Of a DNA stretch of 64,000 nucleotides, positions 4,546 through 53,731 are shown one piece after another. Made by a program: the position numbers and the translations under genes. The stretch covers positions 6,378 through 70,377 of the forward strand of contig CAYSAM010000003.1 in assembly GCA_964429015.1 (NCBI GenBank), given 5' to 3'. Within the stretch, counting starts at the first letter, position 1, and each line of letters starts with the position of its first letter. The notes under the pieces are model-generated. The model was not told the DNA's origin. It saw only the letters and a list, made by a program, of their open reading frames with translations, and searched no databases. The DNA is from an uncultured Pseudomonadales bacterium. GTDB taxonomy: Bacteria; Patescibacteriota; Microgenomatia; UBA1400; MFAQ01.

Positions 4546-4622
4546 GTCATTCCCGACTCGATCGGGAATCCATCCCCATTTCGTCATTGCGAGGCTCGAC
4601 TTTAGGTCGACCGTGGCAATCC
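4546..4622. repeat. GTCAT-hairpin composite repeat element (family 1)
   Basis: GTC-ATTCCCGA-CTCGA-TCGGGAAT-CC (8-bp stem) followed by CGTCATTGCGAGGCTCGACTTTAGGTCGACCGTGGCAATCC. Related copies lie at 12100, 13056(rc), 27408, 32313, 34517, 43257 and 53706. Confidence 0.75.
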
Positions 4623-4644
4623 ACCTACCATCCTGAACCTTGCC

Positions 4645-4675
4645 CAAACACCCTATATTATGGTACAATTACCAT
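4645..4675 (+). promoter_or_regulatory. putative sigma70-like promoter (TTGCCC-18-TACAAT with TG extension)
   Basis: ttgcccaaacaccctatattatggtacaat; lies upstream of the 4713 TTG ORF. Confidence 0.35.
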
Positions 4676-4712
4676 CAGAAATCTTAAAATCCAAGAAAAA
4701 AAGAGGTGTAAA

Positions 4713-5345
4713 TTGACAACACAAAGCGAAAGAAGGAAAAGAACTACCCAAGCACTGCTGTTGGCCGCCCGCCAACTTTACAACGAATTAGATTTTTTTC
4801 AAAAGTACTTTACTTCCACAGTGATTTTAAACGGCTACGTTTGCTGGATGAACGACAGAAAAACAGGTTACTACAAGGTTAATGTCAACAGCGGCATTGT
4901 CCTTGAAGTTGATACCATTGAAGATACGACGGGTAAATACGTAAGGACAGAAGACCTTGTTTCGGTTTCCATGGCAATGGCAAACTTCATCAATATTTCC
5001 GGAACTATGGCAGGTTACTCGAGGCCTCTGCCTCAAATCAGCCACCAAGTACTGGATGGCATTGGTTGTCAGGTAACTACTCGTGGCGCGAACGAGACAG
5101 ATCTAACGCTTTATGCTTCTCACGATGTCTATCTAGAACTTGCCAAGTTGCATGTATTACACGAGCAAATATATTGGCCCCACAAACTCACCCATTACGC
5201 TCTAAAAGATGGCCGAACTCTGGCAATCACCATCGAGGAAAAAGAAGTTAACTTCGCAGTTTTGAGATCTCAATCCGTTCCAGTGAAAACAGGTATTCTT
5301 GAAATGCGCAACGCACTCATGGAATTTGTTCTTTACTGCAGTTAG
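4713..5345 (+). CDS. hypothetical protein (island ORF A; TTG start after SD AAGAGGTG)
   Basis: The long ORF from 4587 begins inside the repeat element. SD plus an in-frame TTG at 4713 is more plausible. No recognisable domain. Confidence 0.45.
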   Translation: MTTQSERRKRTTQALLLAARQLYNELDFFQKYFTSTVILNGYVCWMNDRKTGYYKVNVNSGIVLEVDTIEDTTGKYVRTEDLVSVSMAMANFINISGTMAGYSRPLPQISHQVLDGIGCQVTTRGANETDLTLYASHDVYLELAKLHVLHEQIYWPHKLTHYALKDGRTLAITIEEKEVNFAVLRSQSVPVKTGILEMRNALMEFVLYCS

Positions 5346-5356
5346 TTAGATACCAG

Positions 5357-5382
5357 CCCGCCTCATTGAGGCGGGTTCTTTT
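5357..5382 (+). terminator. rho-independent terminator
   Basis: CCCGCCTC-ATT-GAGGCGGG followed by TTCTTTT. Confidence 0.8.
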
Positions 5383-5444
5383 ATACCTACCATCATCCTT
5401 ACCAAAACACCCTCACGCCCGCAGGATTTTTTTGTGCCCAAATC

Positions 5445-5473
5445 TTGAATATTATCCTATATAGTGCTAAAAT
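5445..5473 (+). promoter_or_regulatory. sigma70-like promoter TTGAAT-17-TAAAAT with internal palindrome CTATATAG (paralogue A)
   Basis: ttgaat attatcctatatagtgc taaaat; an almost identical copy lies 700 bp downstream. Confidence 0.6.
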
Positions 5474-5519
5474 ACCCCAGATTTATCCAATCCACACTTT
5501 AAGTTAAAGGAGCTATCAC

Positions 5520-6083
5520 ATGCCGTCTGAATTCAAGAAGTTTTCACCTTACTTACTTTTGCTATTTATCTTCAGCGCAATCCTCGGTCTTTTCCTTCGT
5601 GGCAATCAGCTTGCCACCAGTATCTGGTTAGGCGTAGCCGTGGTTACCTGTATCTGCCTTATCGGTATTGAGTTCGGCTCACTTCTATTAGTCAAAAAAG
5701 ACAAAAATCTCTGGTACACAGAAACTCTCATTGCCGACAACAACGCAATCTTTGTCTTTGGCGAAGATGAACGGCACGAAGCTAAAGAGATTGTGGAGAA
5801 CGTTCGACGTTTATACAATGCTGGAGTACTATATCCTGTCTTAAATATTTTTGGAGTCGAAACGAGGGCTAACTTTTGGGGAAAAGACTTTTACTGCCCA
5901 TTTTCTACGACAGTATCTACATACCTTTGCATAACCCCAGACGGTGTTTTCTGTCGAAGTAACAGCGGGCTCGAAGTCCTGGAAAAGTTTGAGGCAATAA
6001 GTTTTGGATTCTTACAAGAACTCCACCGTGAGTTAGCACTTCAGGTTGAAAAACTCCCAGACCTTTCGGAAGATGAGTGGTAA
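5520..6083 (+). CDS. hypothetical membrane protein (2 N-terminal TM helices plus cytoplasmic domain; island ORF B)
   Basis: SD AAGGAG 9 nt upstream; hydrophobic segments LLLLFIFSAILGLF and IWLGVAVVTCICLIGI. Confidence 0.6.
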   Translation: MPSEFKKFSPYLLLLFIFSAILGLFLRGNQLATSIWLGVAVVTCICLIGIEFGSLLLVKKDKNLWYTETLIADNNAIFVFGEDERHEAKEIVENVRRLYNAGVLYPVLNIFGVETRANFWGKDFYCPFSTTVSTYLCITPDGVFCRSNSGLEVLEKFEAISFGFLQELHRELALQVEKLPDLSEDEW

Positions 6084-6099
6084 TTTGTTTATTTTCGTT

Positions 6100-6133
6100 C
6101 CCCGTCGCCATCATGGCCACGGGGAATTTTTTT
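6100..6133 (+). terminator. rho-independent terminator
   Basis: CCCCGTCGCC-ATCAT-GGCCACGGGG followed by AATTTTTTT. Confidence 0.7.
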
Positions 6134-6144
6134 ATGCCCAAAGA

Positions 6145-6173
6145 ATGAAAATAATCCTATATAGTGCTAAAAT
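6145..6173 (+). promoter_or_regulatory. paralogous promoter copy B (ATGAAA-17-TAAAAT, same ATCCTATATAGTGCTAAAATACCCCA core)
   Basis: Bases 6151-6179 are identical to 5451-5479. Confidence 0.55.
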
Positions 6174-6204
6174 ACCCCAAAATTCCTTAATAAAAGGAGG
6201 CTAT

Positions 6205-6753
6205 ATGCCTTTATTTAAATTCGCTCTAGAAGACTGGTACCGACTTCCAATTGGTGGCAAGTACGAGTGCTACGTTCGCCCAGACCGCCCATATACTATT
6301 ATCATCGACAATGAGCACAACAAAGTCGCTCTCACATTGGAAATCTCTTCAAACCCAAACTGGTATGTAGAAGAATTTACGAAACAAGTTGAGGCTGACA
6401 TGGTTCTTCCGCTAAATCAACATAACCTCTATTTTCTAGAAAGAGAAGCCCTGCTTGCAGAAGAAAGGCTCAATATCCACCACGATCATTTTTATGAAGA
6501 TGTTGGTGAATTGGAAGAAAAGAGATATCTATACGCCGCAATATTCGAAGTCTTTCTGTTCGATCGTCCCCCAGGTTATCTCGGCCTTCGTAGCCAGCAA
6601 GAATACTTGTTGGTTTACAACTCGATACCTTATCTTAGTTTCGATCCAAACAGTCTGGAGTATCAAAAATCGCTAAACATATTCACTGCCTTTACAGGTG
6701 CAACTGTTTGCAGAGTTGTAGATGTTACAGACTCGATTATTTCAGGTATATAA
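6205..6753 (+). CDS. hypothetical protein (island ORF C)
   Basis: SD AAGGAGG plus ATG at 6205. The long 6046 start overlaps the upstream gene and terminator. Confidence 0.6.
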   Translation: MPLFKFALEDWYRLPIGGKYECYVRPDRPYTIIIDNEHNKVALTLEISSNPNWYVEEFTKQVEADMVLPLNQHNLYFLEREALLAEERLNIHHDHFYEDVGELEEKRYLYAAIFEVFLFDRPPGYLGLRSQQEYLLVYNSIPYLSFDPNSLEYQKSLNIFTAFTGATVCRVVDVTDSIISGI

Positions 6754-6785
6754 TCAGCCCAGCACACGAAAATAAAGGAGAAAAA

Positions 6786-7115
6786 ATGGACATTGATTTT
6801 TCAGGTTCGCTTGAAAGACTCTTAAAAATAACCCGTTTTTTACATTCGATCATTGAGAATTTAGCTTTGGAAAAGCAAGAATCACCAAGTCTATACTTTG
6901 AGGCTAACAAGCTATACATTAACCTCAATCATCGACAAGGCTGGATTGTTGTCGATCCTGAAAATAATCGAGCTTATCATGTTTCGCGGGCCAAGGATCC
7001 AGCTACAACTCAACATCCTTGCTCACCATATTTGGCTGAATATATTTACAAGAGCCTGCACGACACCCTCATTGATCTCAATCTGCTTGTAGACTACAAC
7101 AATTTTGAAGGATAG
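6786..7115 (+). CDS. hypothetical protein (island ORF D, 109 aa)
   Basis: SD AAGGAG followed by ATG at 6786. Confidence 0.55.
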   Translation: MDIDFSGSLERLLKITRFLHSIIENLALEKQESPSLYFEANKLYINLNHRQGWIVVDPENNRAYHVSRAKDPATTQHPCSPYLAEYIYKSLHDTLIDLNLLVDYNNFEG

Positions 7116-7124
7116 CAACCATCA

Positions 7125-7151
7125 CACCCTCACATTCCGAGGGTGTTTTTA
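7125..7151 (+). terminator. rho-independent terminator
   Basis: CACCCTC-ACATTCC-GAGGGTG followed by TTTTT. Confidence 0.8.
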
Positions 7152-7159
7152 TATTCAAC

Positions 7160-7188
7160 TTGTTATATATCCCATAATGACATAAAAT
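7160..7188 (+). promoter_or_regulatory. sigma70-like promoter TTGTTA-17-TAAAAT containing the ATATCCCATAA motif
   Basis: ttgtta tatatcccataatgaca taaaat. Confidence 0.5.
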
Positions 7189-7236
7189 ATCAAAGCGTGC
7201 GTTGTCACTTTAAAATACCAAACACAGGAAGGTAAA

Positions 7237-7884
7237 ATGCTAAACGATTCTTTACGTCTCATGCTTGTTGAATCCACAATAAACGTCTTTAGGGTAGCTT
7301 TAAGTTCACCGTACTTCCTAAAGTCAATTGTGGATATCCCACACATAAACATAGGAAGCAACCTTTGTTTTTATGCAGAGGAGATAGGTGTTTATTGCTG
7401 CATCGACCTTAGTTTAAACGATATATATGTCTCACCAGAGCTAGTTGCTTTGGATTATCAAAATTACCCACAGGCTACCATCCAAGAACTTATTGTTTTG
7501 TCTCAAACACTTGTTCGCTTTGCAAAAAAAACAAGCTTGTGGTCAAGAATTTGTTCTTTATCTTGTCATATCAAAATTACTCCGGGAGAACAAGAACTTC
7601 TGCCACAAAGTTGTTATTTCGATAATGAAATTCTATTTTGGTATAGCCCCAAAATTAACCAGTACCTTAGAGTCGATTTTGTTTCATATAGCTTATTCCT
7701 TATGGATGAGCCTTCAGATCAGAGGAGTGCTTGGAAAGTCCCCTCAGAACAACATTTGCAAGCAGTTATCGAAGAGATTGTAAGTCACTATATATCAATT
7801 CATAAAAAAACAACAATGATTGCTGAGTATATGAATCAATACTTACAAAACAAAGATCTTAGTCAAAAGTTTTCCCTAAGTTAA
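7237..7884 (+). CDS. hypothetical protein (island ORF E, 215 aa)
   Basis: SD AGGAAGG; ORF. Confidence 0.55.
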   Translation: MLNDSLRLMLVESTINVFRVALSSPYFLKSIVDIPHINIGSNLCFYAEEIGVYCCIDLSLNDIYVSPELVALDYQNYPQATIQELIVLSQTLVRFAKKTSLWSRICSLSCHIKITPGEQELLPQSCYFDNEILFWYSPKINQYLRVDFVSYSLFLMDEPSDQRSAWKVPSEQHLQAVIEEIVSHYISIHKKTTMIAEYMNQYLQNKDLSQKFSLS

Positions 7885-7913
7885 AACTACTACTTGTGCA
7901 AACGGAGCTGCAA

Positions 7914-8465
7914 ATGGTCTCAATGGTGCAAAAAATTTTATTAGATCTAGCCAAAGAATTGGCTTTAAAAAAGCAAAAAGAAAGTTTGATAACCTGGGAT
8001 ATCTCCCCACATCTATCCCTCGGTATAGATCTTGTTGATGAAAAATTTTTTTACATTACCAAGCCAGGGAAAACAAAAATTAAGGATGAAGTCACTCTGG
8101 ATGACATCCTCATCGTTGCCTCCGCCATAAAGTTGTATTTAAAAAATGGCGCAGACAAATACAACATGGAGTTGGATTTGTATTACCAGAGTGGCGTCCG
8201 ATACTACGCTAACCTCGTCATCTTCTACGTTGAAAGCTGTGATGGTCCCAAAACAGACCGTTTCGTTATTGTTGGCAAACATATTGCCTTCAAAAACAGA
8301 TCTGGCTTCAACGTCTACCAGCATGTCCCGGATGGACCTGGAGTTTGGTATCAAGCTGGAGGTAAGCAGCTCGATATTGACAAAATAAAAAAGGTTGAGC
8401 AGATAAACCGCAGACGAGATCGCAGAGCGTTCGATCTCCTTCGAGAAACTGTGAAAATGTTATAG
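7914..8465 (+). CDS. hypothetical protein (island ORF F)
   Basis: SD GGAG 6 nt before the ATG at 7914. Confidence 0.5.
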   Translation: MVSMVQKILLDLAKELALKKQKESLITWDISPHLSLGIDLVDEKFFYITKPGKTKIKDEVTLDDILIVASAIKLYLKNGADKYNMELDLYYQSGVRYYANLVIFYVESCDGPKTDRFVIVGKHIAFKNRSGFNVYQHVPDGPGVWYQAGGKQLDIDKIKKVEQINRRRDRRAFDLLRETVKML

Positions 8466-8476
8466 GACAATTAAAT

Positions 8477-8507
8477 CATCTCGGCCATTTGGTCGGGATT
8501 TTTTGTC
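8477..8507 (+). terminator. putative terminator (7-bp stem with G-U pairs followed by T-run)
   Basis: CTCGGCC-ATTT-GGTCGGG followed by ATTTTTTG. Confidence 0.5.
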
Positions 8508-8532
8508 CATATCCCATAAAAAGATATATAAT
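8503..8532 (+). promoter_or_regulatory. sigma70-like promoter TTGTCC-18-TATAAT containing the ATATCCCATAA motif
   Basis: ttgtcc atatcccataaaaagata tataat; paralogous to the 7160 promoter. Confidence 0.55.
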
Positions 8533-8566
8533 ATGCCAGACTAAATACTAAAGGAGAACTTTTAAA

Positions 8567-9229
8567 ATGCACAAGAATCTCTATGACTATCTCAGAAATG
8601 CTGTCTTGTCAAAGGAGTTTTTATATCTCCTGGATGAATGTGGTGGTAAGTATCAAAATGGTTTTTTAACTTGGATCAAATTCCTTTTTGATGATGACGA
8701 ACTGGATGTTGACAAAGAAAGTATCGTCTATGCCATCGATATTAATCTGGAAAAAATTTACCTTCTCAACCACGAAAATCAGGTGCCTGGTCAAGGTAAG
8801 CTGGTAACAAGTCTAGAGTTGGCTGACGAGCTTTATAAAAGCATCTCATCTCGAATCTCAATAGTTAACGCTCTAAAGGGCAAAACCCTACCTTCGGTTA
8901 ATCTTTTTCAGTTTGTTCTTTTCTGCTTCGAAAATTTTGGACCGAGAAGTCTATTGGAAAAAGCTGGAGCCATTTTTGATGGTGACTGGTTCATTTGGCA
9001 AGATGAAAATGAAGAGCTTTTTTACGCCGTCAATCCCATCGTTAGTTCTGTCATGGCGCTTGTCAGTAAGGACGATAATCCAGCGATGGGGCGTGAGGTG
9101 CTAGATGAATTAGAAATCTCAAATATTCTAGTGGACATTTTTGAAAAGCTGGAAGAAGTCCGTTATATTAAAATTTTTAATTTTTCACCCAGTCACTATC
9201 TCCCGGGTCAACTGTTTACTATAAACTAA
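8567..9229 (+). CDS. hypothetical protein (island ORF G; weak SUKH/SMI1-KNR4-like resemblance)
   Basis: SD AAAGGAGA. The segment ...AGAIFDGDWFIWQDENEELFYAV... resembles SMI1/KNR4 immunity-type folds, but this is a low-confidence call. Confidence 0.55.
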   Translation: MHKNLYDYLRNAVLSKEFLYLLDECGGKYQNGFLTWIKFLFDDDELDVDKESIVYAIDINLEKIYLLNHENQVPGQGKLVTSLELADELYKSISSRISIVNALKGKTLPSVNLFQFVLFCFENFGPRSLLEKAGAIFDGDWFIWQDENEELFYAVNPIVSSVMALVSKDDNPAMGREVLDELEISNILVDIFEKLEEVRYIKIFNFSPSHYLPGQLFTIN

Positions 9230-9238
9230 AGAGTCATC

Positions 9239-9622
9239 ATGGATGAAAACGACGAAAAGAATCCACTAGAGGACCTAATACACATTATTCAAATTTTAAT
9301 GGAAGAGCCAGACAAGCTAGAAAAACTCAAAAAAATGGGGGCCAAAATCACCAGAGATTTTTTTGTGTTTACCTGTTTAGGCGGGTGTGGTTTGGTTTAT
9401 GCCATAAACGGAATTTCTGGTGAAGTTTATGACCTCAATGATCTAGAAAGCACACCAGAAACCGGAAGAGTAATAACAGACTCAGAGGAGATTGCATGCA
9501 TTATCGAAAGCCTTCTTGAGTTTGTTGAAGATACCCCAGATTTGTATGTGGTTGAAGAGTTTTTTATGGAACGCCTAAACCCCAAAAAATACATCCCTGG
9601 AAGTTGCTTTTCACCTTGCTAG
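9239..9622 (+). CDS. hypothetical acidic protein (island ORF H, 127 aa)
   Basis: Closely follows ORF G; SD AAGAG. Confidence 0.5.
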   Translation: MDENDEKNPLEDLIHIIQILMEEPDKLEKLKKMGAKITRDFFVFTCLGGCGLVYAINGISGEVYDLNDLESTPETGRVITDSEEIACIIESLLEFVEDTPDLYVVEEFFMERLNPKKYIPGSCFSPC

Positions 9623-9635
9623 CTTTTGATCACAG

Positions 9636-9659
9636 ACCCGCTTCTTAGCGGGTTTTTTA
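9636..9659 (+). terminator. rho-independent terminator
   Basis: ACCCGCT-TCTT-AGCGGGT followed by TTTTT. Confidence 0.8.
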
Positions 9660-9703
9660 ACGGACTCTTTCAAAAATCTCAAAAACTGTTAATATAAAAA
9701 TAT

Positions 9704-10720
9704 ATGGCAAGTGAAAATGAAGAATATTCCACACGACGAACAGTAGCCCCTCATGCCCCATCAAGGCAACCAAGGCGTGATTTTAAGAGTAGTTATCAAG
9801 ATGACGTTTACAATCCCTATTCTAATGTAAACTTAGGTGAGATTTCAGAAGTAAACCGAAAACCCAAAAAAGGCAGAATCAGAAGAAATGAACTAACCCC
9901 AACTGAAATTAATAATCTTTCAGAAGCAGACAAAAAAGCTAGAGAAAAATACCTAGCTGGCAATCTTGAGGAAATAAAACAATTATCATATGTTGAAACT
10001 AAGGGGAATTTTGGTAAGGTTGGTGAGGCACACACTGATGGTAAGCCTCCAGTTACTGAAGAGCGGGACGAAAAAATTACTGGTTTTAGCGTTGTTCAAT
10101 TAGAAAAAGAAGGAGATGTTTTAAGAGGTGATGAACAACGCATAGAAGGTATTGATAGTGGAAAATTGGGAACTGGAAAAAATCCAGATCAAGCAGATAT
10201 TGTCTACACCGAAAACGATCATCTTTTACCCATTAGTGACCGCGTGCAAAGTTTTGGTGATAGTCCGTTGCCTTTAGAAGATCAACATGCCGATAACGAT
10301 TATGAATTTGCAAAAAACGAAGACAGATTGATTGAGCCTGTTGATGCTACTCGAATAGAAGGTGATATTAACGTTGACTTTAACTTGGAATCAGTTTCAG
10401 ATAAAGTGGTACGTGAATTCTTAATTAAAAAAGGGTTAAGCTTTGTTGAAAATGTTTGGGAAAATTGCCGCTTTATTAATATATATTCAAAAAAAGATAG
10501 TTTTGATTTATACATAAATTTAAATGCTTATGGCAAAGGTTTTGTAGCTATGAAATTGGTTGACTTCTTTAATATGTGCAATTTGCCAGATTTTAATAAT
10601 GGTAATTCTCATTTGAAATCACCTGCGACCTTTGATAAAAAAGAAATATTGTCTACAATTAACAGAATTAAAGTTAACAATCGAGCAAATGGTGCCATAA
10701 AAAAATCAAGGCGCCATTGA
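9704..10720 (+). CDS. hypothetical protein with disordered, charged N-terminal half and C-terminal globular domain (island ORF I)
   Basis: 338-aa ORF; no recognisable domain. Confidence 0.5.
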   Translation: MASENEEYSTRRTVAPHAPSRQPRRDFKSSYQDDVYNPYSNVNLGEISEVNRKPKKGRIRRNELTPTEINNLSEADKKAREKYLAGNLEEIKQLSYVETKGNFGKVGEAHTDGKPPVTEERDEKITGFSVVQLEKEGDVLRGDEQRIEGIDSGKLGTGKNPDQADIVYTENDHLLPISDRVQSFGDSPLPLEDQHADNDYEFAKNEDRLIEPVDATRIEGDINVDFNLESVSDKVVREFLIKKGLSFVENVWENCRFINIYSKKDSFDLYINLNAYGKGFVAMKLVDFFNMCNLPDFNNGNSHLKSPATFDKKEILSTINRIKVNNRANGAIKKSRRH

Positions 10721-12092: not shown

Positions 12093-12157
12093 AATCATTG
12101 TCATTGCGAGGCACGTCTTTATGACAGCCGCAAAAATCTATATAAATTGAATACAAA

Positions 12158-12541
12158 ATGAAAACCATTTTAGTCGACGCTGCTGGAACACTTGTCGTCG
12201 ATGGTCAGGGAATATATCAGCCTCTTTATGACCTACTGGAAGAGTACCTAAACAAAAAGATTATTTTGTCCAATGCCAACGACGAACAATTGGTTGACTA
12301 TGGCATCGTTAACATGCCATATGAAGTCTTTACCTTAAAACACAATCCCAACAAAGACAATCCTGAGTATTTTAAAACAATGTTGAACCATTTTGGCTTA
12401 TCCGTTTCGGATGTCATTTATTTTGAGCATAGCCCCGAGGCTGTCGAAAGTGCCACTTCTCTAGGTATACTTTCTCATCACTACGACTCGGATAAAAAAG
12501 ATATTGAAAGTCTAAAAGTATTTCTAGATAAAAACCTTTAG
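12158..12541 (+). CDS. small HAD-superfamily-like hydrolase (degenerate motif I)
   Basis: MKTILVDAAGTLVVDG...; 127 aa. Confidence 0.4.
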   Translation: MKTILVDAAGTLVVDGQGIYQPLYDLLEEYLNKKIILSNANDEQLVDYGIVNMPYEVFTLKHNPNKDNPEYFKTMLNHFGLSVSDVIYFEHSPEAVESATSLGILSHHYDSDKKDIESLKVFLDKNL

Positions 12542-12544
12542 TTT

Positions 12545-12964
12545 TTAATCCCTCTCGGCTTCGCCGCTTCTCCCTTTGACAAGGGAGAGCAAAACACTTT
12601 TAACTTTTCCAAAATCTTTCAATACAGTCTCGTTTGTAAATCTGATAGTTTCAATTCCAATTTGTTTCAAAAATTCATCACGCTCCTTGTCGTAACCTAC
12701 TCTATCTTTGTGATACTCTCCATCAATTTCAATAGCCAAGTTTAATTCAGAACAATAAAAATCCAAAATAAATCTTCCAATCGGTTTCTGTCTGGTAAAT
12801 TTATATCCTGTCTGTTTTTTAGATAGTATCTTCTCCCAAACTAACACTTCTGCTTTTGTTGGTTTCTTTCTGTTAATTCTTGCTGCCCAGGTTAACTTTG
12901 GTAAATACTTTATTTGCCCATGTGTTTTGCTAATAACTTCAAAATCAATAGCTTTTTTCGTCAC
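12545..12964 (-). CDS. DUF559 / endonuclease-like (Vsr-fold) domain protein
   Basis: ...KKPTKAEVLVWEKILSKKQTGYKFTRQKPIGRFILDFYCSELNLAIEIDGEYH... Confidence 0.75.
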   Translation of the reverse strand: MTKKAIDFEVISKTHGQIKYLPKLTWAARINRKKPTKAEVLVWEKILSKKQTGYKFTRQKPIGRFILDFYCSELNLAIEIDGEYHKDRVGYDKERDEFLKQIGIETIRFTNETVLKDFGKVKSVLLSLVKGRSGEAERD

Positions 12965-12973: not shown

Positions 12974-13122
12974 TAACGCCCTGCCCTGTCAAGGGAAGGG
13001 TTGGGGAAGGGTTTAAAAAGTGAGGGGGATTAAAAACATTAAGGCTTTATTCTGGATTCCGGATCAAGTCCGGAATGACAACTAACGCCCTGCCCTGTCA
13101 AGGGAAGGGTTGGGGAAGGGTT
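12974..13122. repeat. 40-bp perfect direct repeat (x2) flanking a family-1 GTCAT hairpin
   Basis: TAACGCCCTGCCCTGTCAAGGGAAGGGTTGGGGAAGGGTT occurs at 12974-13013 and 13083-13122. A related CCCTTTGACAAGGGAGAG lies at 12567-12590. Confidence 0.85.
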
Positions 13123-13140
13123 TTGGTATAAAATAAATCC

Positions 13141-19344: not shown

Positions 19345-22300
19345 GTGACCAGTTTTTTTACCTATCTTCACAAGCTTAACAAAGTAAAAGTTGGAATAAT
19401 TTTTTTATCTCTTTGTTTTTTGGTGTCAGTCGCCGTTTTTATTTTGCCTCAACTTCGTCAAACTGCGCGCATCAAACTTGGATCAGTAGACGGGCTAACT
19501 ATAACCGCTGATAAGCAGGACTCTCTCGGTATCTTCACCAATACCCAATTTACCGTCAAAACAGATACTGATCTGAGCTCTTCCGACATCAAAAAGAACC
19601 TCACCATTTTTCCTGCTACAGAATTCGATATTCAGCCGATTTCTGCACGTCAATTCACCTTAACTCCAAAACAACACCTCCTAGATAACAGTATCTACAG
19701 AATCGAAGTCAAAACCAATCAAAAAACTTTTTCGTGGGCATTTCAAACCAAAAATGATTTTCGTGTAGTCAATTCTCTTCCAGCCGACAAAACAGCCTAC
19801 GTACCCACAAACACAGGTATAGAACTAATTTTTAGCCACGACAACTGGGAAGATCCAAAAAGTTTCTTTTCTATTCATCCCAAGACGGAAGTAAGTTTCG
19901 AGCGCCACGGCCGGACCGCCTCATTTTTGCCTAAGTCCTTAAATCCCGGAACTCTTTATACCGTTACTCTCAAAAAAGGTCTAAAGCTAAACGGTACTGT
20001 CGATATCCTAAAAGACGATTTCACTTTTCAATTCGAAACAAAACCTTCCACTCCAATACAATCAAAAGTAAGCTTTTCCAAACTAACTTACGAATTTTCT
20101 GACACAGTAACACCAGCTTTCGATGTCTATGTTCCCAGTGAATCACTTTCGGCTATTTCTGCTGATATTTACAAATATCCCGGAGACTCAAGTTTTCTAA
20201 ATCATCTAAATGAAAAAATCTCTACCCCCTCGTGGGCAACTTACTCGGTTAGTAGCGATGTTTTACCAACTAACAATCTTACCAAAGTGGTTTCCCTAAA
20301 TCTAAATATTCAAAAGCAAAAATATAGTAACTTTTTCTCACTTCCCCAAACCCTACCTCTTGGACAATACCTTATCGAGGTATCTGCTGGTGGTCAAAAA
20401 TCCCAAGCACTATTTCAGGTTACCAATGTTTCCGCTTACTTTACCCAAAGTGGCACCAAAACTCTAGTTTGGGTCAACAGTTTAGCAAACGCTCCACTTT
20501 CTGGTGCTACGGTAACTTACAACAATAACAATCAGACCACCGATCAAAACGGCATCTCTTACTTCGAAACTGAACCCTCAGATATACAACTAGGTTTTCA
20601 AAATAAAACAACTATAGTTGCCGTGAAGCAGTCACTTGGAGCTCTTTATTTTCCTTTAAAGAGCGATTATTCTATTTTTTACCAAAAGCAATCACGCCAA
20701 TCAGATAAGTACTGGAGTTATATTTATCTAGACAGGCCCACCTATCTTCCAACAGATACTGTAAAGCTTTGGGGTTTACTCAAAAACAGAGATCTGCCAG
20801 ATAAAAAAACAGAATTTACCTTAGAGGTTACTCGCTCCGATTATCATTCTTGGGACTATCAGCCCATTGCTGTCTATTCCAAAAAAGTTACAACAACAGA
20901 TTTAGGAACCTATCTCGAAGAAATCAACCTCAATCAGTTTTCACCAGGCTGGTATACACTCAGTTTTAAGGTTGGTAATGATATCGTTATTAATTCAGGT
21001 TTTAGTGTTGAAACCTATGTCAAACCAGCCTACAAAATTTCTGTTCAACCTTCGGTCAAAGCTGCTTTTTCTGGAGATCAAATTAATCTTTTAGGTCAGG
21101 CCCAATTTTTTGAGGGGACACCTGTTGTTGGTTTACCGCTAAAAAGCTACAATTCTGACAGTAGTCTAGCTTCACTTACTCCAATCACTGACAACCAGGG
21201 TAAATTTTCAGTTTCTGTTCCTGTAAATAATGGTTCTGCAAATTATTCTCCTAATAATGTGAGTTTTACTTTCTCTCCAAAAAATCCTGAAGAGGGGCAA
21301 ATTTCTGGAAGCGCCAGCCTTGCTGTCTTTTCCTCTTCTCTCTATTTTCCTTATCCACGCATAGACAATAAAAACAATCAATCATCAGTTACTATCAACC
21401 TTCGTCAAGTAGATCTTCAAAAATACTCTCCCACAGCCGACCTCGCCGAGGTTTTTAATCCAGCACCAAATCAAAATGTTCACGCTGTTATTTATCAAAT
21501 CGATTGGCTCAAAAATCAGGTTGGTACGTACTACGATTTTATAAACAAGGTAACCTCTCCAACTTACGAATACTCACAATCTCAAAAGCAAATAGGGGAG
21601 TTTGACTTGGTTACAAATAGTTCTGGTCAAGCCACTTATAGTGTCAATCTCCCCGAAAATACAACATATAAAATTTCATTTTCTTCCAAGGATTCACTGG
21701 GCAGGACGGTTACTCAAGAAGCCATTTTGTACGGTAACAATTATGGTAATTCAGACGACAATTTTCTTTATCTAAAAACCGATAAAGAACAAGAGAAACC
21801 AAATACGTATAATATCGGCGAGCAAGTTAACCTTCATATTGAACAGGGTGGTAAAACTATAGCCGAAAACGAGTCAGACAAGTTTCTTTTTATTGTTTCT
21901 CAGCGCGGAATCAGATCATATTATCTCTCAGATAATGGCCTATTCAGCTTTAAATTTCCCGAAACCTTTATTCCAAACTTTTTTATCCAAGCAGTAAGAT
22001 TCAACGGTCAAACCTACCAAGCTACCGAAAATCTAAGCCTTTACTTCAACCAGGACTCCAAAAAATTAAACATTAAACTTTCCTCAGATAAACCTCTGTA
22101 CGAACCTGCTGATACTGCCAAAATTAACGTTACCACTTCAGACAATAGTGGCAATCCTATCCCTGCTGAAGTAGTCCTCAACGTGGTCGACGAGTCATAT
22201 TATGCACTCTTCACAGATTATCTCAATCCACTTTCAGAGATATACAAATCTGTCCAAACAGATATCATTACTACTTACGCCACACATCAATATCCAAGCA

Positions 22301-24528: not shown

Positions 24529-26258
24529 AGTTTTGGCAGCTTATTCTTGGTTTTTCTCTGATGCTATCTATTGTCTTTTTGTCATTCCGGTCCCGGTCTA
24601 ATACTCAGTCCTCATCATTGCTAGTAGAGCGTGGCAATCCAGAGTCAATCTCGACCACCTTTGCCTACGATCAAAATACTTTTCTAAATTCACTTTCATC
24701 TTCAAATTTCTCAAAAAATAAATACGCAAAAGGAGTAATTATTCCTCATCACCTCCTGGCCTCTCCGCTTATTGTCAAAGGAATAAGTATGCTCAGCGTA
24801 ATTGATCCTCAAAGTACTGTTATTCTGCTATCTCCCAATCATGCAAACCTAGGAAGCTGCGACATTGTCTCTTCAAATCTTCCCTGGTCCACTCCATATG
24901 GAGAAGTCGAAATAGACAAAAAATTGCAAGATGAGTACTTAGTTTCAAAACAAATTTGCATTGATAATTACAGTATAAAAGAAGAACATGGTATCGCTAC
25001 CATCTTGCCATATCTTAAGTATTTTTACCCTCAAGTCAAAGTTCTCCCACTCGCATTTAAAAAAAATATTTCCGAGGAAAAGTTAGAAAAAATAGCCTCA
25101 TTGCTTTCACAAACTTTAAAATATCAAACTAACTTTTTAATTAGCTCAATTGATTTTTCACACAACCTTAGTCTTTCAGAGTCCCAAAAAAAAGATTTGC
25201 TAACCGAAAAATATATCGAATACAAAGACGTCAAAACCATAAAAAATCTTTCCTCTGACTTTCTAGATTCGCCATCGGTACTAATAAATACTTTGCAAAT
25301 AGCCCAAAAAAACGATCTTACTACAAATCAAGAAAATCACAAATCTTCGTACGATTTTGGCTCAAACAGCGATGGGGTTACAAGCTATTTTGTTTATAGT
25401 CTGACTCCAAAACAAACAGATCAAAATTTGACTCTTTTATTTGGCGGCGATGTTATGCTTGGTCGCTCTGTAAATACTCAAATTAGAAATTTTGCCGACT
25501 ATGCCTGGCCAACCAAACTAGTTTCCGAGTTCACAAAACAGTCAGATCTTTTTCTTATAAACCTAGAGTCACCATTCAAGTCAGGGTGTGAGCCAACCGA
25601 CAAGGGTATGGTTTTTTGTGCTCACCCCAATAGCGTGGCCACCCTCGTTAGCGCTGGTGTCGACGTTGTCAATATAGCCAATAACCATATTTATAATCAG
25701 GGCAAAGAGGGTTTATTAGAAACTATCAATATTTTAAATAAAAATAACATTGTATTTGTAGGGGCGGACCCCCGTGTCCGCCCGTTAGATAACCCATTTA
25801 GTTCAATCATCACCATCAAAAATACCAAAATAGCCATCTTAGGTTTCAATGATATTGCACCCTTTCCCCAAGAGGTAAACAAATTGACAGTAGAAAATCT
25901 AACAAGCCAAATTAAAGGTGTTCGTTCTCAGGCAGACTTAGTCATTGTTACTTTTCACTGGGGAAACGAATACCAAAAAGCCAGCCCTCGTCAAAAGGAG
26001 TATGCTCACCTAGCTATCGACCAAGGTGCAGATGCCGTCATCGGTGCCCACCCTCACTGGGTGCAAGAGTTCGAGGAATACCAAGGCAAGCCTGTTTATT
26101 ATTCACTTGGCAATCTGGTCTTCGATCAAATGTGGTCCGAGGAAACCAAAAGTGGACTATTAGTAAAGCTTACCTATCAGAATAAAAAGCTTATCAAAAC
26201 CGAAAACTTTCCCGTAAAAATCGAAAACTACGGCCAACCGTATATAATCAAATTATGA
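24525..26258 (+). CDS. Memo-like (AmmeMemoRadiSam B family) :: CapA/PGA_cap metallophosphatase fusion protein with N-terminal TM
   Basis: N-terminal half: GVIIPHHLLASP...LLSPNH...EHGIATILPYL...SSIDFSHN (Memo pattern). C-terminal half: LLFGGDVMLGRSV...IANNHIYNQG...FHWGNEYQ...GAHPHW (CapA). ATGA overlap with the upstream gene. Confidence 0.65.
   Translation: MKFWQLILGFSLMLSIVFLSFRSRSNTQSSSLLVERGNPESISTTFAYDQNTFLNSLSSSNFSKNKYAKGVIIPHHLLASPLIVKGISMLSVIDPQSTVILLSPNHANLGSCDIVSSNLPWSTPYGEVEIDKKLQDEYLVSKQICIDNYSIKEEHGIATILPYLKYFYPQVKVLPLAFKKNISEEKLEKIASLLSQTLKYQTNFLISSIDFSHNLSLSESQKKDLLTEKYIEYKDVKTIKNLSSDFLDSPSVLINTLQIAQKNDLTTNQENHKSSYDFGSNSDGVTSYFVYSLTPKQTDQNLTLLFGGDVMLGRSVNTQIRNFADYAWPTKLVSEFTKQSDLFLINLESPFKSGCEPTDKGMVFCAHPNSVATLVSAGVDVVNIANNHIYNQGKEGLLETINILNKNNIVFVGADPRVRPLDNPFSSIITIKNTKIAILGFNDIAPFPQEVNKLTVENLTSQIKGVRSQADLVIVTFHWGNEYQKASPRQKEYAHLAIDQGADAVIGAHPHWVQEFEEYQGKPVYYSLGNLVFDQMWSEETKSGLLVKLTYQNKKLIKTENFPVKIENYGQPYIIKL
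25749..25779. repeat. REP-like palindrome (family 2) inserted in-frame within the CapA-like CDS
   Basis: GTAGGGGCGGACCCCCGTGTCCGCCCGTTAG; near-identical to the element downstream of the RAYT at 44628. Confidence 0.7.
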
Positions 26259-27407: not shown

Positions 27408-27503
27408 GTCATGCCGGTCTTGATGAGTTTGTCCCGAGTACCCCCTCGGGAGCATCCAGTCCACGTCATTGCGATGCACGACTTTAGGTCGGCCGCGGCA
27501 ATC
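27408..27503. repeat. GTCAT-hairpin composite repeat element (family 1)
   Basis: GTCATGCCGGTCTTGATGAG...TCCCGAG-TACCCC-CTCGGGAG...CGTCATTGCGATGCACGACTTTAGGTCGGCCGCGGCAATCT. Confidence 0.75.
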
Positions 27504-27562
27504 TATAAAAATAAATTCCACTTTCCTGTTCAACCAAACATATCTCTTGCTACAATTATTTA

Positions 27563-32291: not shown

Positions 32292-32350
32292 GGGGCGAGG
32301 TTCCTCTCGCCCCCGTCATTGCGAGTCACGGCTTCAGGTCGGCCACGGTG
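32292..32350. repeat. perfect 8-bp hairpin GGGGCGAG-GTTCCT-CTCGCCCC followed by a family-1 GTCATTGCGAG element
   Basis: ggggcgaggttcctctcgcccccgtcattgcgagtcacggcttcaggtcggccacggtg. Confidence 0.7.
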
Positions 32351-34498: not shown

Positions 34499-35413
34499 AT
34501 GTCTTTATCCACTTCACGTCATTGCGAGTCACAAAGTGCCGAAGCAATCCACAAACAACCCACCCTCATCGTCTGCGGCACCACTTCCTCCGGCAAATCT
34601 GCCTACACATTCAAGTTAGCCAAAGAGTACAAAAAAGAAGTAAACATTCTCTCCGTCGATTCTCGTCAGTTTTATAAGGACATTCCCATAGTTTCAGGAC
34701 AAGACGACCTTTCAGAGTTACCATCAAACGTCACTCTTTTTGGTCAGGGTTTTTTAGAAGCAGATCAGGTTTCTAATATTAGCGATTTTCAAAAATACGC
34801 CAATCAAATTATCATCAAAACACAAAGTGAAAACAAAAAATTAATTATTGTTGGTGGCTCTGGACTTTATCTCAAAGCTATTACCGAAAACTTAGGTAAT
34901 GCCAAAGTCCCCCCAGACGCAATCTTTAGAAAGGAAGCTGAAAGTTACTCCGTATCTACTCTCCAAAATATTTTAAAAAGTTTGAACATTTCACTCTTTA
35001 ATTCATTAAATAACTCAGATATAAACAATCCTCGTCGCCTCATTCGCCATATCGAAATTTCCCAATCACCAAAAATGTCTCAAAAATCTACCATCTACCA
35101 TCTACCATCTACGACCTATTCCTGGCTCGGTCTCCGCAAATCCCCCGAAGCTCTTCTTCAATCTATCAAAGAACGCGTCGTCTTGCGTCTCAAAAATGGT
35201 GCTATAGAAGAAGTAGAGACTCTACAAAAAAAATATCCAAATCAATCTTTACCGATTTACAGCACTTTGGGTGTAAGCCAAATACAAAAATATCTTTGCC
35301 AAGAAATTACCAAAGAAGAACTAATCAAAAAATGGACAATCGATGATAATAACTATGCCAAACGCCAAATGGTCTGGTTCAAAAAACAACCTCAGATTGT
35401 TTGGTATGATTAA
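34499..35413 (+). CDS. miaA: tRNA dimethylallyltransferase
   Basis: ...TLIVCGTTSSGKSAYTFKLAKEY...ILSVDSRQFYKDIPIVSG.... The first ~18 codons are the translation of a family-1 repeat (34517-34550). Confidence 0.8.
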   Translation: MSLSTSRHCESQSAEAIHKQPTLIVCGTTSSGKSAYTFKLAKEYKKEVNILSVDSRQFYKDIPIVSGQDDLSELPSNVTLFGQGFLEADQVSNISDFQKYANQIIIKTQSENKKLIIVGGSGLYLKAITENLGNAKVPPDAIFRKEAESYSVSTLQNILKSLNISLFNSLNNSDINNPRRLIRHIEISQSPKMSQKSTIYHLPSTTYSWLGLRKSPEALLQSIKERVVLRLKNGAIEEVETLQKKYPNQSLPIYSTLGVSQIQKYLCQEITKEELIKKWTIDDNNYAKRQMVWFKKQPQIVWYD

Positions 35414-44183: not shown

Positions 44184-44631
44184 GCACTCAATCAGGTTAC
44201 CTGGTTATGATTACTCACAAAGTGGGTGGTATTTTGTCACCATTTGTTCATATAAACACGAATGTATTTTTGGGGAAATTGTTGACGGAGAAATGAAATT
44301 AAACGAAATTGGGAAAAACGTGGAACAAAAAATTTTGGAAATGCCAAAGTATTATGGAATAAAAATTGATTGTTTTTGCGTTATGCCAAATCATATACAT
44401 GTTGTTATGGTTATTCCCAACCGTTCGACAATAATAGGGCAGGCGCAGGGGCCTGCCCCTACCATTGGTGAATATGTTAAACGTTTAAAAACCATTACGA
44501 CCAAAAAACAAAAAATGTGGCAACGCAATTATTATGAACATATCGTTCGTGATGATGTGGACATCTCTCGAATTCGTGAATATGTTAATTCAAATGTAAA
44601 AAATTGGATAATTGATAAATTAAATGCGTAG
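44143..44631 (+). CDS. REP-associated tyrosine transposase (RAYT, IS200/IS605 TnpA-like HuH)
   Basis: ...LPGYDYSQSGWYFVTICS...VMPNHIHVVM (HuH)...RNYYEHIVR (catalytic Tyr). No in-frame ATG downstream of the secF stop, so the start is uncertain (41-nt overlap with secF, or a non-canonical start). Confidence 0.75.
   Translation: MLFGINYSKKIKNRHSIRLPGYDYSQSGWYFVTICSYKHECIFGEIVDGEMKLNEIGKNVEQKILEMPKYYGIKIDCFCVMPNHIHVVMVIPNRSTIIGQAQGPAPTIGEYVKRLKTITTKKQKMWQRNYYEHIVRDDVDISRIREYVNSNVKNWIIDKLNA
44437..44466. repeat. REP-like palindrome inside the RAYT CDS
   Basis: GGGCAGGC-GCAGGG-GCCTGCCC. Confidence 0.6.
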
Positions 44632-44705
44632 GGGCAGGCCCCCGTGCCTGCCCTTGTATATCCCCCATGCCTGCCCTTGTATATCCCCCATGCCTGCCCT
44701 TGAAC
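44628..44705. repeat. REP cluster downstream of RAYT: full palindrome GGGGCAGGCCCCCGTGCCTGCCC plus two tandem 23-bp half-site repeats (CCCATGCCTGCCCTTGTATATCC)
   Basis: Same family as 25749-25779. Confidence 0.8.
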
Positions 44706-44713
44706 TGCCCCCG

Positions 44714-48652: not shown

Positions 48653-48680
48653 AAAAGAACCTCTCGCGAGGTTCTTTGTT
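48651..48680. terminator. bidirectional rho-independent terminator
   Basis: AAAAAAGAACCTC-TCGC-GAGGTTCTTTGTT. Confidence 0.8.
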
Positions 48681-48683
48681 CTA

Positions 48684-49337: not shown

Positions 49338-49402
49338 CTTACCTCCGACTATCTTTTAGGGTGCCGCCGAAGCGGTGTGTGTACTGGTTACATATTATAC
49401 AC

Positions 49403-50488: not shown

Positions 50489-50513
50489 ATACTACATAAA
50501 GTATACTATCAGT

Positions 50514-51938: not shown

Positions 51939-51942
51939 CTTA

Positions 51943-52818
51943 ATGCCAAATCTAAATCTGCCCAATGCTTTAGAAAATCTCGAAAAAAGATCTCTTTTAT
52001 TAAACAAAGAGGTAAAAAGGTTTAAAAAAGCCAAAAAATATTTTACCAAAACGCTTCTTTTAGCACATAATCTCCGGCAAAAATCAAATCAAATTTTGGC
52101 GTCTGTTGGCTTAATTGGTACTATCCTCACTACTCCTATTTTTGGGATTTCTGACATAAGCTCTACAAAAATAAAAACAGAAGATTCGCAAACTAAGCCA
52201 TCCAACAGACTACTTCTTCTTAACTACTTGCAAGAAAAAATTCCGCATAACCCTTATAAATTTTCCAAAGAAGAAATTGCCCCACTGGTAAACGAAATAA
52301 ACACCAAAACAAATATTAAAGTTGATGGCTATCTAGACGATCAATCACTAAATCATCATCTGGGCTACATCGGCTACGAACAACACTTAGTTCGTTTCCC
52401 TGGGGATAGCATAAGCCAGCACGACTCTTTTCAGGAAGCTGGCATGGCTCCAGGCAAAGGCGCTTTTGGCTATTTTGCCAAAGATGCGTCTCAGTTTACT
52501 ACCCAAGACTTTCTAAGAGAAAAATACTACTGCGTCGTCCAAACACTCTACTTAGAAAACTGGAACAGAGATCACCCCTTTCTCAAAGACTGGTACCAAT
52601 TCCGCAAAGTCTTGGTTATCAATCCCGTGAACGGTAACGCTGTCGTCTGCGATATTGGTGATGCGGGTCCTGCTGAGTGGACAGGTAAACAATTTGGTGG
52701 TTCTCCAGAGGTAATGCAAGAGTTAAACCTTCACAGGGGGCCAAGAAAGGGATTGGTTCTTATGTTATTTGTCGATGATCCTAACAATTTAGTTCCCTTA
52801 GGTCCTGTTAATTATTAA
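51943..52818 (+). CDS. hypothetical protein, possible RlpA/DPBB-like C-terminal domain
   Basis: ...VLVINPVNGNAVVCDIGDAGPAEWTGKQFGGSPEVMQELNL... resembles a double-psi beta-barrel; low confidence. Confidence 0.4.
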   Translation: MPNLNLPNALENLEKRSLLLNKEVKRFKKAKKYFTKTLLLAHNLRQKSNQILASVGLIGTILTTPIFGISDISSTKIKTEDSQTKPSNRLLLLNYLQEKIPHNPYKFSKEEIAPLVNEINTKTNIKVDGYLDDQSLNHHLGYIGYEQHLVRFPGDSISQHDSFQEAGMAPGKGAFGYFAKDASQFTTQDFLREKYYCVVQTLYLENWNRDHPFLKDWYQFRKVLVINPVNGNAVVCDIGDAGPAEWTGKQFGGSPEVMQELNLHRGPRKGLVLMLFVDDPNNLVPLGPVNY

Positions 52819-52823
52819 AAAAT

Positions 52824-53144
52824 ATGTCCATACTTTTTTACGACCATCTTTTCTCCAAACAGCAGATTCAAGAAATTATTGATCAGGTCGAAGAATCTGA
52901 AAACCTCAAATCTCGAATGCATCAACTTGTTGATGATATTGTTTATCAGGGCTTAGTTGCTATGATTCTTGGAAAATTAAAAGAAAGTAAACATGAAGTT
53001 TTTTTGGAAATGCTGCACGATAGGCCATATGACACCGAAATAATTCTCTTTCTGAGAGAACATACCCACGACCAAATAGAAGATGATATTAGGCAGGAAG
53101 CCGAAAAACTACTTGGTACTATTCTCAAAGATATGCTACCCTAA
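52824..53144 (+). CDS. hypothetical protein (106 aa)
   Basis: ORF immediately downstream of 51943..52818 (5-nt gap); no motif. Confidence 0.4.
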   Translation: MSILFYDHLFSKQQIQEIIDQVEESENLKSRMHQLVDDIVYQGLVAMILGKLKESKHEVFLEMLHDRPYDTEIILFLREHTHDQIEDDIRQEAEKLLGTILKDMLP

Positions 53145-53149
53145 TTGTT

Positions 53150-53683
53150 ATGGAAACAGAAAAATGCCCCAAATGTGGCGCACCCTTAGGAGATGTTCAA
53201 GAAACAGCAACTGGACGCAAGTTGCAACGTTGTTCGGCAGGTTCTTGGAATAAAGAAACCAAAAAAAACGAAGGTTGTGACTATGTTAAGTGGTTACAAG
53301 TAGAACCCCAAACCTTAGACGAAAAATGCCCCAAATGTGGCGCACCACTAGTGCTTCAAGTAACTCGTTTTGGTAAAAAAATGAAAAAATGTAGTGCTGG
53401 CGGATGGGACAAAGAAGCCAAAAAGGCTACTGGTTGTGATTTTGTGGAGTGGGTAAATGGCACCACCGAAAAGTTAGACGAAAAATGCCCTCAATGCGGC
53501 GAGGAACTCGTTCTTTATACTACCGCTAACGGCAAAAGAATGAAAAAGTGTTCCACTTCTGGTTGGGATAGAGAAGCCAAACGTGCCACCGGTTGTCCTT
53601 ATGTTGAGTGGCTCAAGGCGGAATATAAAGCAGCTCCAGCTAACGGCGAAGAATTTTTGCCCCCCGAAGAAGACATCTTCTAA
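53150..53683 (+). CDS. protein made of three tandem topoisomerase-type C4 zinc-ribbon modules
   Basis: Three repeats of CP(K/Q)CG..L-x20-CS(A/T)(G/S)GW-x13-GC(D/P)(Y/F)VEW; the DNA repeats about every 160 bp. Confidence 0.6.
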   Translation: METEKCPKCGAPLGDVQETATGRKLQRCSAGSWNKETKKNEGCDYVKWLQVEPQTLDEKCPKCGAPLVLQVTRFGKKMKKCSAGGWDKEAKKATGCDFVEWVNGTTEKLDEKCPQCGEELVLYTTANGKRMKKCSTSGWDREAKRATGCPYVEWLKAEYKAAPANGEEFLPPEEDIF

Positions 53684-53705
53684 ACTTACGTCACAAAAAT
53701 GATCT

Positions 53706-53731
53706 GTCATGCCGGACTTGATCCGGCATCC
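53706..53731. repeat. family-1 GTCAT hairpin element
   Basis: GTC-ATGCCGGA-CTTGA-TCCGGCAT-CC. Confidence 0.75.

Follow-up and report, generated by a model that had tools for sequence, protein, structure and literature searches.

GTCAT-headed hairpin repeats at gene junctions of a Candidate Phyla Radiation-like bacterium: probable members of the NTS/SRM family

What are the short palindromes, headed by GTCAT, that recur at gene boundaries in the genome of an uncultured bacterium resembling those of the Candidate Phyla Radiation (CPR)? We analysed a stretch of 64,000 nucleotides from contig CAYSAM010000003.1, referred to as the window, in which a preliminary description had noted a family of REP/BOX/MITE-like hairpins at nine or more gene boundaries. 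It had distinguished two unit types, placed them directly after stop codons or over gene ends, kept them apart from the repeats of a RAYT gene in the same window, and proposed a role as mRNA-stabilizing or terminating hairpins. Our analysis indicates that the GTCAT palindromes probably belong to the family of NTS and Ssn-related motif (SRM) repeats, described in 2025 as ssDNA target sites of small GIY-YIG nucleases (Ssn). They would be a new, slightly divergent instance of these repeats in a CPR-like host and not a new kind of element.

Copies of the element in the window

Direct reading of all eight previously listed intervals showed the sequences described for them. Two further copies had been overlooked, 3421-3457 with a mutated head and 24581-24643 in a decayed state (Table 1). 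The exact 10-mer GTCATTGCGA occurs five times in the window, at 4583, 12100, 27465, 32315 and 34518 and on the plus strand only, while 0.10 ± 0.33 occurrences are expected from dinucleotide-preserving shuffles; a copy with one mismatch is found at 43260. The pattern GTCATKCCSG-N(3-12)-SCGGMATCC has two matches (13054-13079 on the minus strand and 53706-53731 on the plus strand), compared with none in shuffles, and the unit at 4546-4571 shares its plan.

When folded as single-stranded DNA (ssDNA), the copies at 4546, 13079 (minus strand) and 53706 form an 8-bp stem with a 5-nt loop (z = -3.5 to -4.4). The copies at 4583 and 3421 are also intact, folding is weak for that at 27465 (z = -1.2), and the hairpin is decayed at 12100, 32315, 34518 and 43260. 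The fold of 4583 and 27465 is composite: an internal loop separates an outer stem of 5 bp (ATTGC/GCAAT) from an inner hairpin. All intact copies follow the scheme Y-GTC-AT...AT-C(C/T), the head being (T/C)GTCAT and the tail ATCC or ATCT. A tRNA-like or CCA-tail reading of the end ...ATCCA was ruled out, since half of the copies end in ATCT.

Some copies are translated in the open reading frame (ORF) predictions. The spurious N-terminus LRGSTLGRPWQS of ORF 4587-5345 and the start LRCTTLGRPRQS of ORF 27469 confirm the earlier statement that read-through of elements produces artefacts among the ORFs. Likewise, the element had been said to supply the N-terminus of miaA. This holds: ATG 34499 is the sole start upstream of the P-loop (residues 27-33), so that the element encodes residues ~7-17.

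Table 1. Element copies and the GIY-YIG gene of the window
Position	Strand	Type	Context and properties
3421..3457	+	ATTGC-stem (type B variant), head GTT instead of GTC	rplR-rpsE spacer; fold z = -2.35
4546..4571	+	Type A, GTCATTCCCGACTCGATCGGGAATCC, 8-bp stem, 5-nt loop	3' of terminator 4504-4532; fold -7.6 kcal/mol, z = -3.46
4583..4622	+	Type B, GTCATTGCGAGG-(TCGAC TTTAG GTCGA)-CCGTGGCAATCC	Tandem, 11 nt after the type A copy; z = -2.2
12100..12138	+	Type B, 3' arm decayed (GCAAAAATC)	7 nt past the secY stop codon
13054..13079	-	Type A, GTCATTCCGGACTTGATCCGGAATCC	Upstream of the DUF559 gene
24581..24643	+	Decayed pair: GTCATTCCGG head, then TCATCATTGCTAGTAGAGCGTGGCAATCC	Inside the 5' coding region of ORF 24525-26258
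27408..27457	+	Type A with extra hairpin inserted (TCCCGAG-TACCCC-CTCGGGA)	
27465..27504	+	Type B	Tandem, 7 nt after the copy 27408..27457; translated as LRCTTLGRPRQS (ORF 27469)
32315..32350	+	Type B, head intact, 3' arm lost	No longer folds, z = +1.8
34518..34550	+	Type B, GAAGCAATCC tail variant	In frame, within the first ~17 codons of miaA
43260..43291	+	Decayed type B (GTCATTACGA...GGCAATC)	Across the secD end; secD ORF stops inside the copy
53706..53731	+	Type A, GTCATGCCGGACTTGATCCGGCATCC	Fold z = -4.44
59523-59795	-	90-aa single-domain GIY-YIG protein, candidate Ssn-like nuclease	Pfam GIY-YIG, E = 2.3e-17

Relationship to NTS and SRM repeats

Searches of general resources did not name the family. 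Rfam gave no family at its gathering threshold, and relaxing the cut-off to E <= 10 for two element regions added nothing but terminator-like noise. Literature queries with the raw element strings returned primers only. The link came via the dRS3 repeat of Neisseria, which we take the type A stem to resemble.

According to Chenal et al. (Nat Commun 2025; PMC11893778), the NTS (CGTCATTCCCGCGMAVGCGGGAATCYRG) is an oriented superset of the dRS3 repeat ATTCCC-N8-GGGAAT with the core GTCATTCCCGCG-NNN-GCGGGAATCC, and about half of the dRS3 copies are oriented NTS. NTS-like hairpins of 20-50 nt, the SRMs, are found in many phyla and flank ssnA homologues. SsnA itself, a 94-aa single-domain GIY-YIG protein (cd10448) encoded in the layout NTS-ssnA-NTS, binds the motif as forward-strand ssDNA only (double-stranded DNA, RNA and the reverse strand are not bound) and cuts a few nucleotides upstream (5') of the GTC head. 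In mutagenesis, the C 3' of the palindrome was most critical for binding and the three nucleotides before the palindrome for cleavage. In N. meningitidis, the system reduces transformation by NTS-bearing DNA (PMC11893778).

The intact copies of the window share the sequence features of these motifs. They carry the published head HGTCWY, fold as inverted repeats in the range of 20-50 nt (z = -2.2 to -4.4), and have the C 3' of the palindrome followed by a pyrimidine, as in the published tail RNCYNB. Like NTS and SRM, the elements are multicopy, mostly intergenic, clustered or in tandem, and present in many phyla. Exact NTS cores occur in relatives of the same clade (GTCATTCCCGCGAAGGCGGGAATCC in locus L201 and GTCATTCCCGCGCAGGCGGGAATCC in L159; L numbers designate sequences fetched for comparison), and the same elements bracket small GIY-YIG genes elsewhere, as described below.

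Sub-types, covariation and distribution

The distribution beyond the window was determined by a cross-phylum scan for GTCATTGCGA-N(8-36)-GGCAATC, using one genome per species. At least 151 copies of the ATTGC sub-type (type B) were found in at least 120 loci. Among the matches listed, the hosts are Alpha-, Beta- and Gammaproteobacteria, Dehalococcoidia and other Chloroflexota, Oscillospiraceae, Bacteroidota, Planctomycetota, Nitrospirota, Elusimicrobiota, Treponema, Patescibacteria and others. Viral contigs also carry GTCAT elements, and in total the same DNA was found in more than 240 loci of unrelated context, from many phyla and viral contigs. The family is thus not confined to the window.

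The consensus of type B is Y-GTC-ATTGC-GAG-(free hairpin)-CG(Y)G-GCAAT-C-Y. In the cross-phylum copies, position -1 is a pyrimidine in 115 of 128 and position +1 after GGCAATC in 122 of 128, while flanks farther out are not conserved. Most copies show self-complementarity within the variable core (median z = -1.6). The shortest cores, GCGAAGC, GCGTAGC or GCGCAGC, are d(GCGNAGC) mini-hairpins, which are known for their stability. Loops on the GTCAT strand are rich in GNA (GAA 16, GCA 8, GTA 2), whereas complementary TNC loops are missing among the 25 commonest loop sequences; this asymmetry points to a single functional strand, as far as can be judged from loop composition. In 115 of 128 copies, folding is better for the forward than for the reverse strand, a significant difference that is confounded, however, by the fixed part of the motif.

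Both unit types of the preliminary description exist, but they are not separate. Hybrids with a type A loop in a type B frame were found in L058, L010 and L104, and relatives contain a third, GA/AG-bulged sub-type (ATTCC-GA-stem-AG-GAAT). Types A and B are sub-types of one architecture, consisting of Y-GTC, a hairpin starting with AT, and ATC(C/T).

Pairing in the perfect hairpin was analysed in 26-mers picked by head and tail alone (n = 29). All six inner positions form Watson-Crick pairs in 21 of them. In the 12 distinct sequences, five of the eight stem pairs are altered on both sides and 99% of the cells are paired, a level of covariation reached by none of 500 shuffles. Base pairing rather than codons is kept across the variants, which bears out the view of a dispersed, non-coding hairpin family, and by this covariation the stem of the perfect hairpin appears to be under selection.

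Small GIY-YIG genes (~95-105 aa) bracketed by type B/C elements were detected by a GIY-YIG profile search in four loci (L035, L091, L106 and L219). The inverted orientation of the bracketing elements could be read directly in L035, L091 and L106; in L219, the elements that flank the gene are found on both strands. The published NTS-ssnA-NTS layout is thereby reproduced independently in the fetched loci. An all-against-all BLAST comparison of the neighbour genes around the 151 cross-phylum copies revealed no recurrent protein family.

One 13-kb viral contig (L264, IMG/VR contig 3300022660_000530) contains 17 type B copies at 2670-5103. They form head-to-tail arrays with a period of ~42 nt, and similar short arrays occur in L069 and L111.

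Turnover at orthologous gene junctions

It had been suggested that copy positions be compared between related genomes as an indication of mobility. Elements proved to be present, absent or swapped at orthologous junctions, which shows that the family is mobile, its members being gained, lost and exchanged at gene junctions. The secY-adk junction was compared in relatives with 72-87% SecY identity, including 10-kb flanks. In at least nine of them it measures only 2-5 nt and contains no element. Three relatives have a solo element (55-60 nt including flanks), which has an ATTGC stem in L125 and L136 and an ATTCC, GA/AG-bulged stem in L135. In L149, L138 and the window, the junction holds an element plus extra genes. 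Comparison of filled with empty secY-adk junctions showed no short target-site duplication. In the regions covered, L125, L138, L139 and L149 are rich in elements, and L124, L141, L145 and L153 have none.

A 127-aa ORF of the insert (o127, 12158-12541), which has no Pfam match, is found again at this junction in L121 and L138, with or without the neighbouring gene for a DUF559 endonuclease, which suggests that the insert was built up stepwise. The latter gene (12545-12964) lies between the inverted elements at 12100 and 13079 and was considered as regular cargo or partner of the elements. This was rejected because no elements adjoin its homologues in L212, L213 and L214; the gene is merely resident at the secY-adk junction in the sub-lineage of the window. 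Close homologues of the DUF559 protein are annotated in metagenome-assembled genomes of Candidatus Shapirobacteria, in keeping with a CPR/Patescibacteria host.

Exchange of sub-types is seen at the rplR-rpsE junction. There, the window has an ATTGC-stem copy in common with L125 and L138, in both of which the GTCAT head is intact; in L121, the closest relative, a type A element takes its place. The site corresponding to 53706 in the sister genome L201 is occupied by a different, rearranged element.

L201 also contains an in-frame copy. The exact NTS core GTCATTCCCGCGAAGGCGGGAATCC (5755-5778, minus strand) lies in nadE, in the linker between CN_hydrolase and NAD_synthase, where it encodes MDSRLRGNDRT. 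The orthologue of the window has TNYRNSENERT at this site (~57.3 kb, in ORF 56299-58155), which is of equal length with unrelated codons, in proteins that are otherwise 90% identical. Hairpin repeats residing in frame within genes, as in the miaA N-terminus, ORF 24525 and the nadE linker of L201, presumably have a parallel in the Rickettsia palindromic elements. We take these to be longer (100-150 bp) and unrelated in sequence, and we know of no cognate nuclease for them.

The two copies of a perfect 41-nt direct repeat (12974-13014 and 13083-13123) enclose a block of 68 nt that contains the minus-strand element 13054-13079. L213 has a single copy of the repeat and no element, and strain L211 shares the filled state of the window. 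Either a long target duplication or a local tandem duplication, linked to the arrival of the element, may account for the repeat. The elements do not behave as typical MITEs: a short target-site duplication is missing, the 41-nt duplication is atypical, and no parent insertion sequence was found adjoining the copies.

The 41-nt repeat itself contains a promoter-like sequence, TTGACA-N17-TACAAT, upstream of the DUF559 gene.

Placement and orientation

In the CPR clade, 51 elements located between co-oriented genes have gene orientation and only two the opposite one, and 30 of 75 start 0-10 nt past a co-oriented stop codon (median 7 nt). Such nearly uniform co-orientation and stop-codon proximity distinguish these elements from the published NTS/SRM. 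In the window, the earlier statement that copies directly follow stop codons applies to most of them, but not to 4546, where an intrinsic terminator (4504-4532) separates the rplO stop codon from the element. Across phyla, the bias in tandem-gene spacers is weak (29 in gene orientation versus 18 opposite), 17 elements occupy divergent and 14 convergent spacers, and within 50 nt of a stop codon 29 follow a co-oriented gene versus 13 next to a convergent one.

Could the elements then act at the RNA level? As 3'-end hairpins they might serve as exonuclease barriers and mRNA stabilizers, as attenuators or as regulators coupled to translation termination, either primarily or as a secondary function on an SRM origin. 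Effects on RNA are known for some REPs of E. coli. The 51 to 2 co-orientation, the median distance of 7 nt from stop codons and the excess of co-oriented over convergent stop codons across phyla are in favour of such a role, as is the better folding of the forward strand, which results in part from the fixed part of the motif. However, 95% of the long ORFs in the loci of the CPR clade are on the same strand, so that co-orientation with genes is inseparable from a replication-strand bias, and across phyla the divergent and convergent spacers are occupied as well. The GC skew, negative throughout on the coding strand, was uninformative on replication versus transcription bias.

None of the copies in the window is followed by a T-run, the downstream sequence being A-rich or mixed, and a terminator scan of 4400-4700 calls only the separate hairpin 4504-4532. 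With a canonical terminator already upstream of the elements at 4546, the proposed terminating or stabilizing role has no direct support as primary explanation. Further, several copies persist in the window despite a lost hairpin, and a bare stabilizer hairpin would need neither an invariant GTC head nor a 3' C across a dozen phyla. These are the bases needed by SsnA, which counts against a primary role at the RNA level; the published SsnA does not bind the RNA form (PMC11893778). Altogether, we regard an RNA-level function as conceivable, if rather unlikely. A secondary RNA-level or translation-level effect is possible in view of the strong co-orientation and the short distance to stop codons in the clade, and the stop-proximal, co-oriented placement is a testable hint of such an added role in expression.

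Across the whole window (1-64000), the GC skew is -0.04 to -0.16 (C > G) on the coding plus strand, the opposite of the usual skew of leading and coding strands.

A candidate nuclease and a possible mechanism

If the elements are SRMs, a GIY-YIG nuclease should act on them. The window codes for a single GIY-YIG protein (59523-59795; Table 1), which is 37% identical to the element-flanked protein of L035. Here, several observations weigh against membership of the elements in the NTS/SRM family. The protein of the window is UPF0213-like (closest solved relatives 1zg2 and 1ywl, E ~1e-12) and not clearly of the element-flanked sub-type, whereas the protein of L035 barely matches UPF0213 (E = 0.007). 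Its gene is 5.8 kb from the nearest element, and no elements were found beside it or beside four distinct homologues (L201-L210; five contexts including the window), so this gene is ruled out as an element-flanked one. The published degenerate SRM string, HGTCWYN(0-2)YYVSBRHN(0-5)WNVSBRGN(0-2)RNCYNB, has no match in the window: type A deviates from it in one or two positions of the stem, and in type B the ATTGC stem does not fit the YY positions. Finally, neither the strong co-orientation (51 versus 2) nor the proximity to stop codons is predicted by the transformation model of Neisseria.

Failure of the SRM string lowers the case for membership but does not remove it, as the string was made manually from 29 genomes (PMC11893778). 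Since both the ATTGC-stem sub-type and type A escape the string, they would extend the family as published. The GA/AG-bulged sub-type escapes it as well, and the NTS/SRM family would then be broader than the string indicates. Distinctive for the elements described here are that the commonest sub-type combines an ATTGC stem, a conserved GAG/CGYG internal loop and a freely variable inner hairpin, and that the host is CPR-like, a group absent from Chenal et al. (PMC11893778).

For the elements as NTS/SRM repeats, the following course of events can be proposed. The GTCAT strand, when exposed as ssDNA, would fold into a stem-loop that is recognized by a small single-domain GIY-YIG nuclease (Ssn). 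By analogy to the Neisseria model, the enzyme would bind the hairpin and the 3' C and cut a few nucleotides 5' of the GTC head. Three stem sub-types coexist in the lineage: the perfect ATTCC/ATGCC stem, the composite ATTGC-GAG...CGYG-GCAAT stem and, in relatives, the GA/AG-bulged stem. The elements have been gained, lost and exchanged at junctions and survive mainly a few nucleotides past stop codons, occasionally in frame in genes. An Ssn-type nuclease of the organism may act on their single-stranded form in the course of replication, repair or DNA uptake, and this action may underlie their spread and maintenance.

A variant of this proposal is that the UPF0213-type protein encoded at 59523-59795, and not a canonical cd10448 Ssn, services the hairpins; the strict placement might also reflect targeted insertion or a translation- or transcript-coupled role instead of mere tolerance. 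We consider this doubtful. UPF0213 is the YhbQ/YazA family, which is still uncharacterized. If the variant were true, site-specific ssDNA nuclease activity would extend to UPF0213 and SRMs would gain a second function linked to gene expression.

Comparison with REP elements and the RAYT gene of the window

Classical REPs or REPINs are mobilized in trans by a RAYT, an IS200-like Y1 transposase, and the window does contain a RAYT gene (44190-44631; Pfam Y1_Tnp, 4.3e-9; NCBIfam REP_Tyr_transpos, 1.5e-14). The REP/BIME/REPIN sequences of E. coli and Pseudomonas have much in common with the elements described here. They are extragenic palindromes that have an orientation and, on the 5' side, a short conserved head (a tetranucleotide in REPs), are often found just past stop codons, and occur singly, in tandem or as inverted pairs, REPINs being resembled by the inverted element pairs of other phyla. 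In both cases an ssDNA hairpin would be the substrate of a dedicated small nuclease or transposase, which for our elements is assumed by analogy.

There are also differences. The RAYT gene of the window has its own, separate repeats at 44629-44712, with a GTAG head, a GGGCAGGC/GCCTGCCC stem and three 23-nt units, and it is not flanked by any GTCAT element; the two repeat systems had been separated correctly. The head of our elements is GTC and not GTAG/GTGG, and the proposed partner has the GIY-YIG fold, while that of REPs is HUH-Y1. RAYT-REP pairs are lineage-specific and REPs species-specific, whereas the GTCAT motif keeps its sequence across phyla. Among the 240 fetched loci, neither a RAYT nor any other family recurs beside the elements, whereas GIY-YIG genes do. 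Mobilization by a RAYT is therefore highly improbable.

The RAYT gene directly follows secF. Downstream of it come a GTAG-headed REP and, in tandem, three units of 23 nt (CCCCCRTGCCTGCCCTTG...), and the gene itself contains a related palindrome, GGGCAGGCGCAGGGGCCTGCCCC.

That the copies resemble each other by chance, or represent a peptide motif conserved in real proteins, can practically be dismissed: some copies do overlap ORFs (4587, 27469, miaA, secD, 24525), but the copies are mostly intergenic, the five exact 10-mers far exceed the 0.10 expected, the same DNA recurs in unrelated contexts of many phyla and viral contigs, and its variation keeps pairing and not codons.

Genomic setting and significance

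The window has a G+C content of 39.4%, and nearly all of its genes are on the plus strand. A ribosomal-protein operon is followed by secY, adk and map, and lineage-specific genes interrupt both the rplO-secY and the secY-adk junction. Turnover of the elements is documented at orthologous junctions of a ribosomal-protein/secY/adk operon that is tightly packed in other respects. The element family, explained only in 2025, can now be placed, with good probability, in a reduced, CPR-like genome. CPR bacteria are thought to depend on DNA uptake, and a system resembling ssDNA restriction at the elements could shape their recombination. Annotation is also affected, as the elements account for spurious ORFs and extended N-termini that turn up repeatedly, among them ...RGSTLGRPWQS... 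and ...SRHCESQSAEAI.... In-frame copies inside genes are a further addition to what has been described for the family.

The genes rplO and secY are adjacent in most bacteria. In the window, they are separated by ~6 kb of ORFs without Pfam match (4661-10720). This insert contains a 59-nt repeat with 86% identity between its copies, of which one (5426-5484) is located shortly upstream of ORF 5520-6083 and the other (6126-6184) inside ORF 6046-6753. The 1727-aa ORF 19345-24528 resembles alpha-2-macroglobulin (MG2, A2M_BRD, A2M) and carries a Hint/intein-like insert (PT-HINT, Intein_splicing) at residues ~995-1123. Directly upstream of the element at 53706, ORF 53150-53683 encodes a 177-aa protein from three 159-nt repeats, each of which specifies a C4 zinc ribbon with matches to the topoisomerase-type zinc ribbon.

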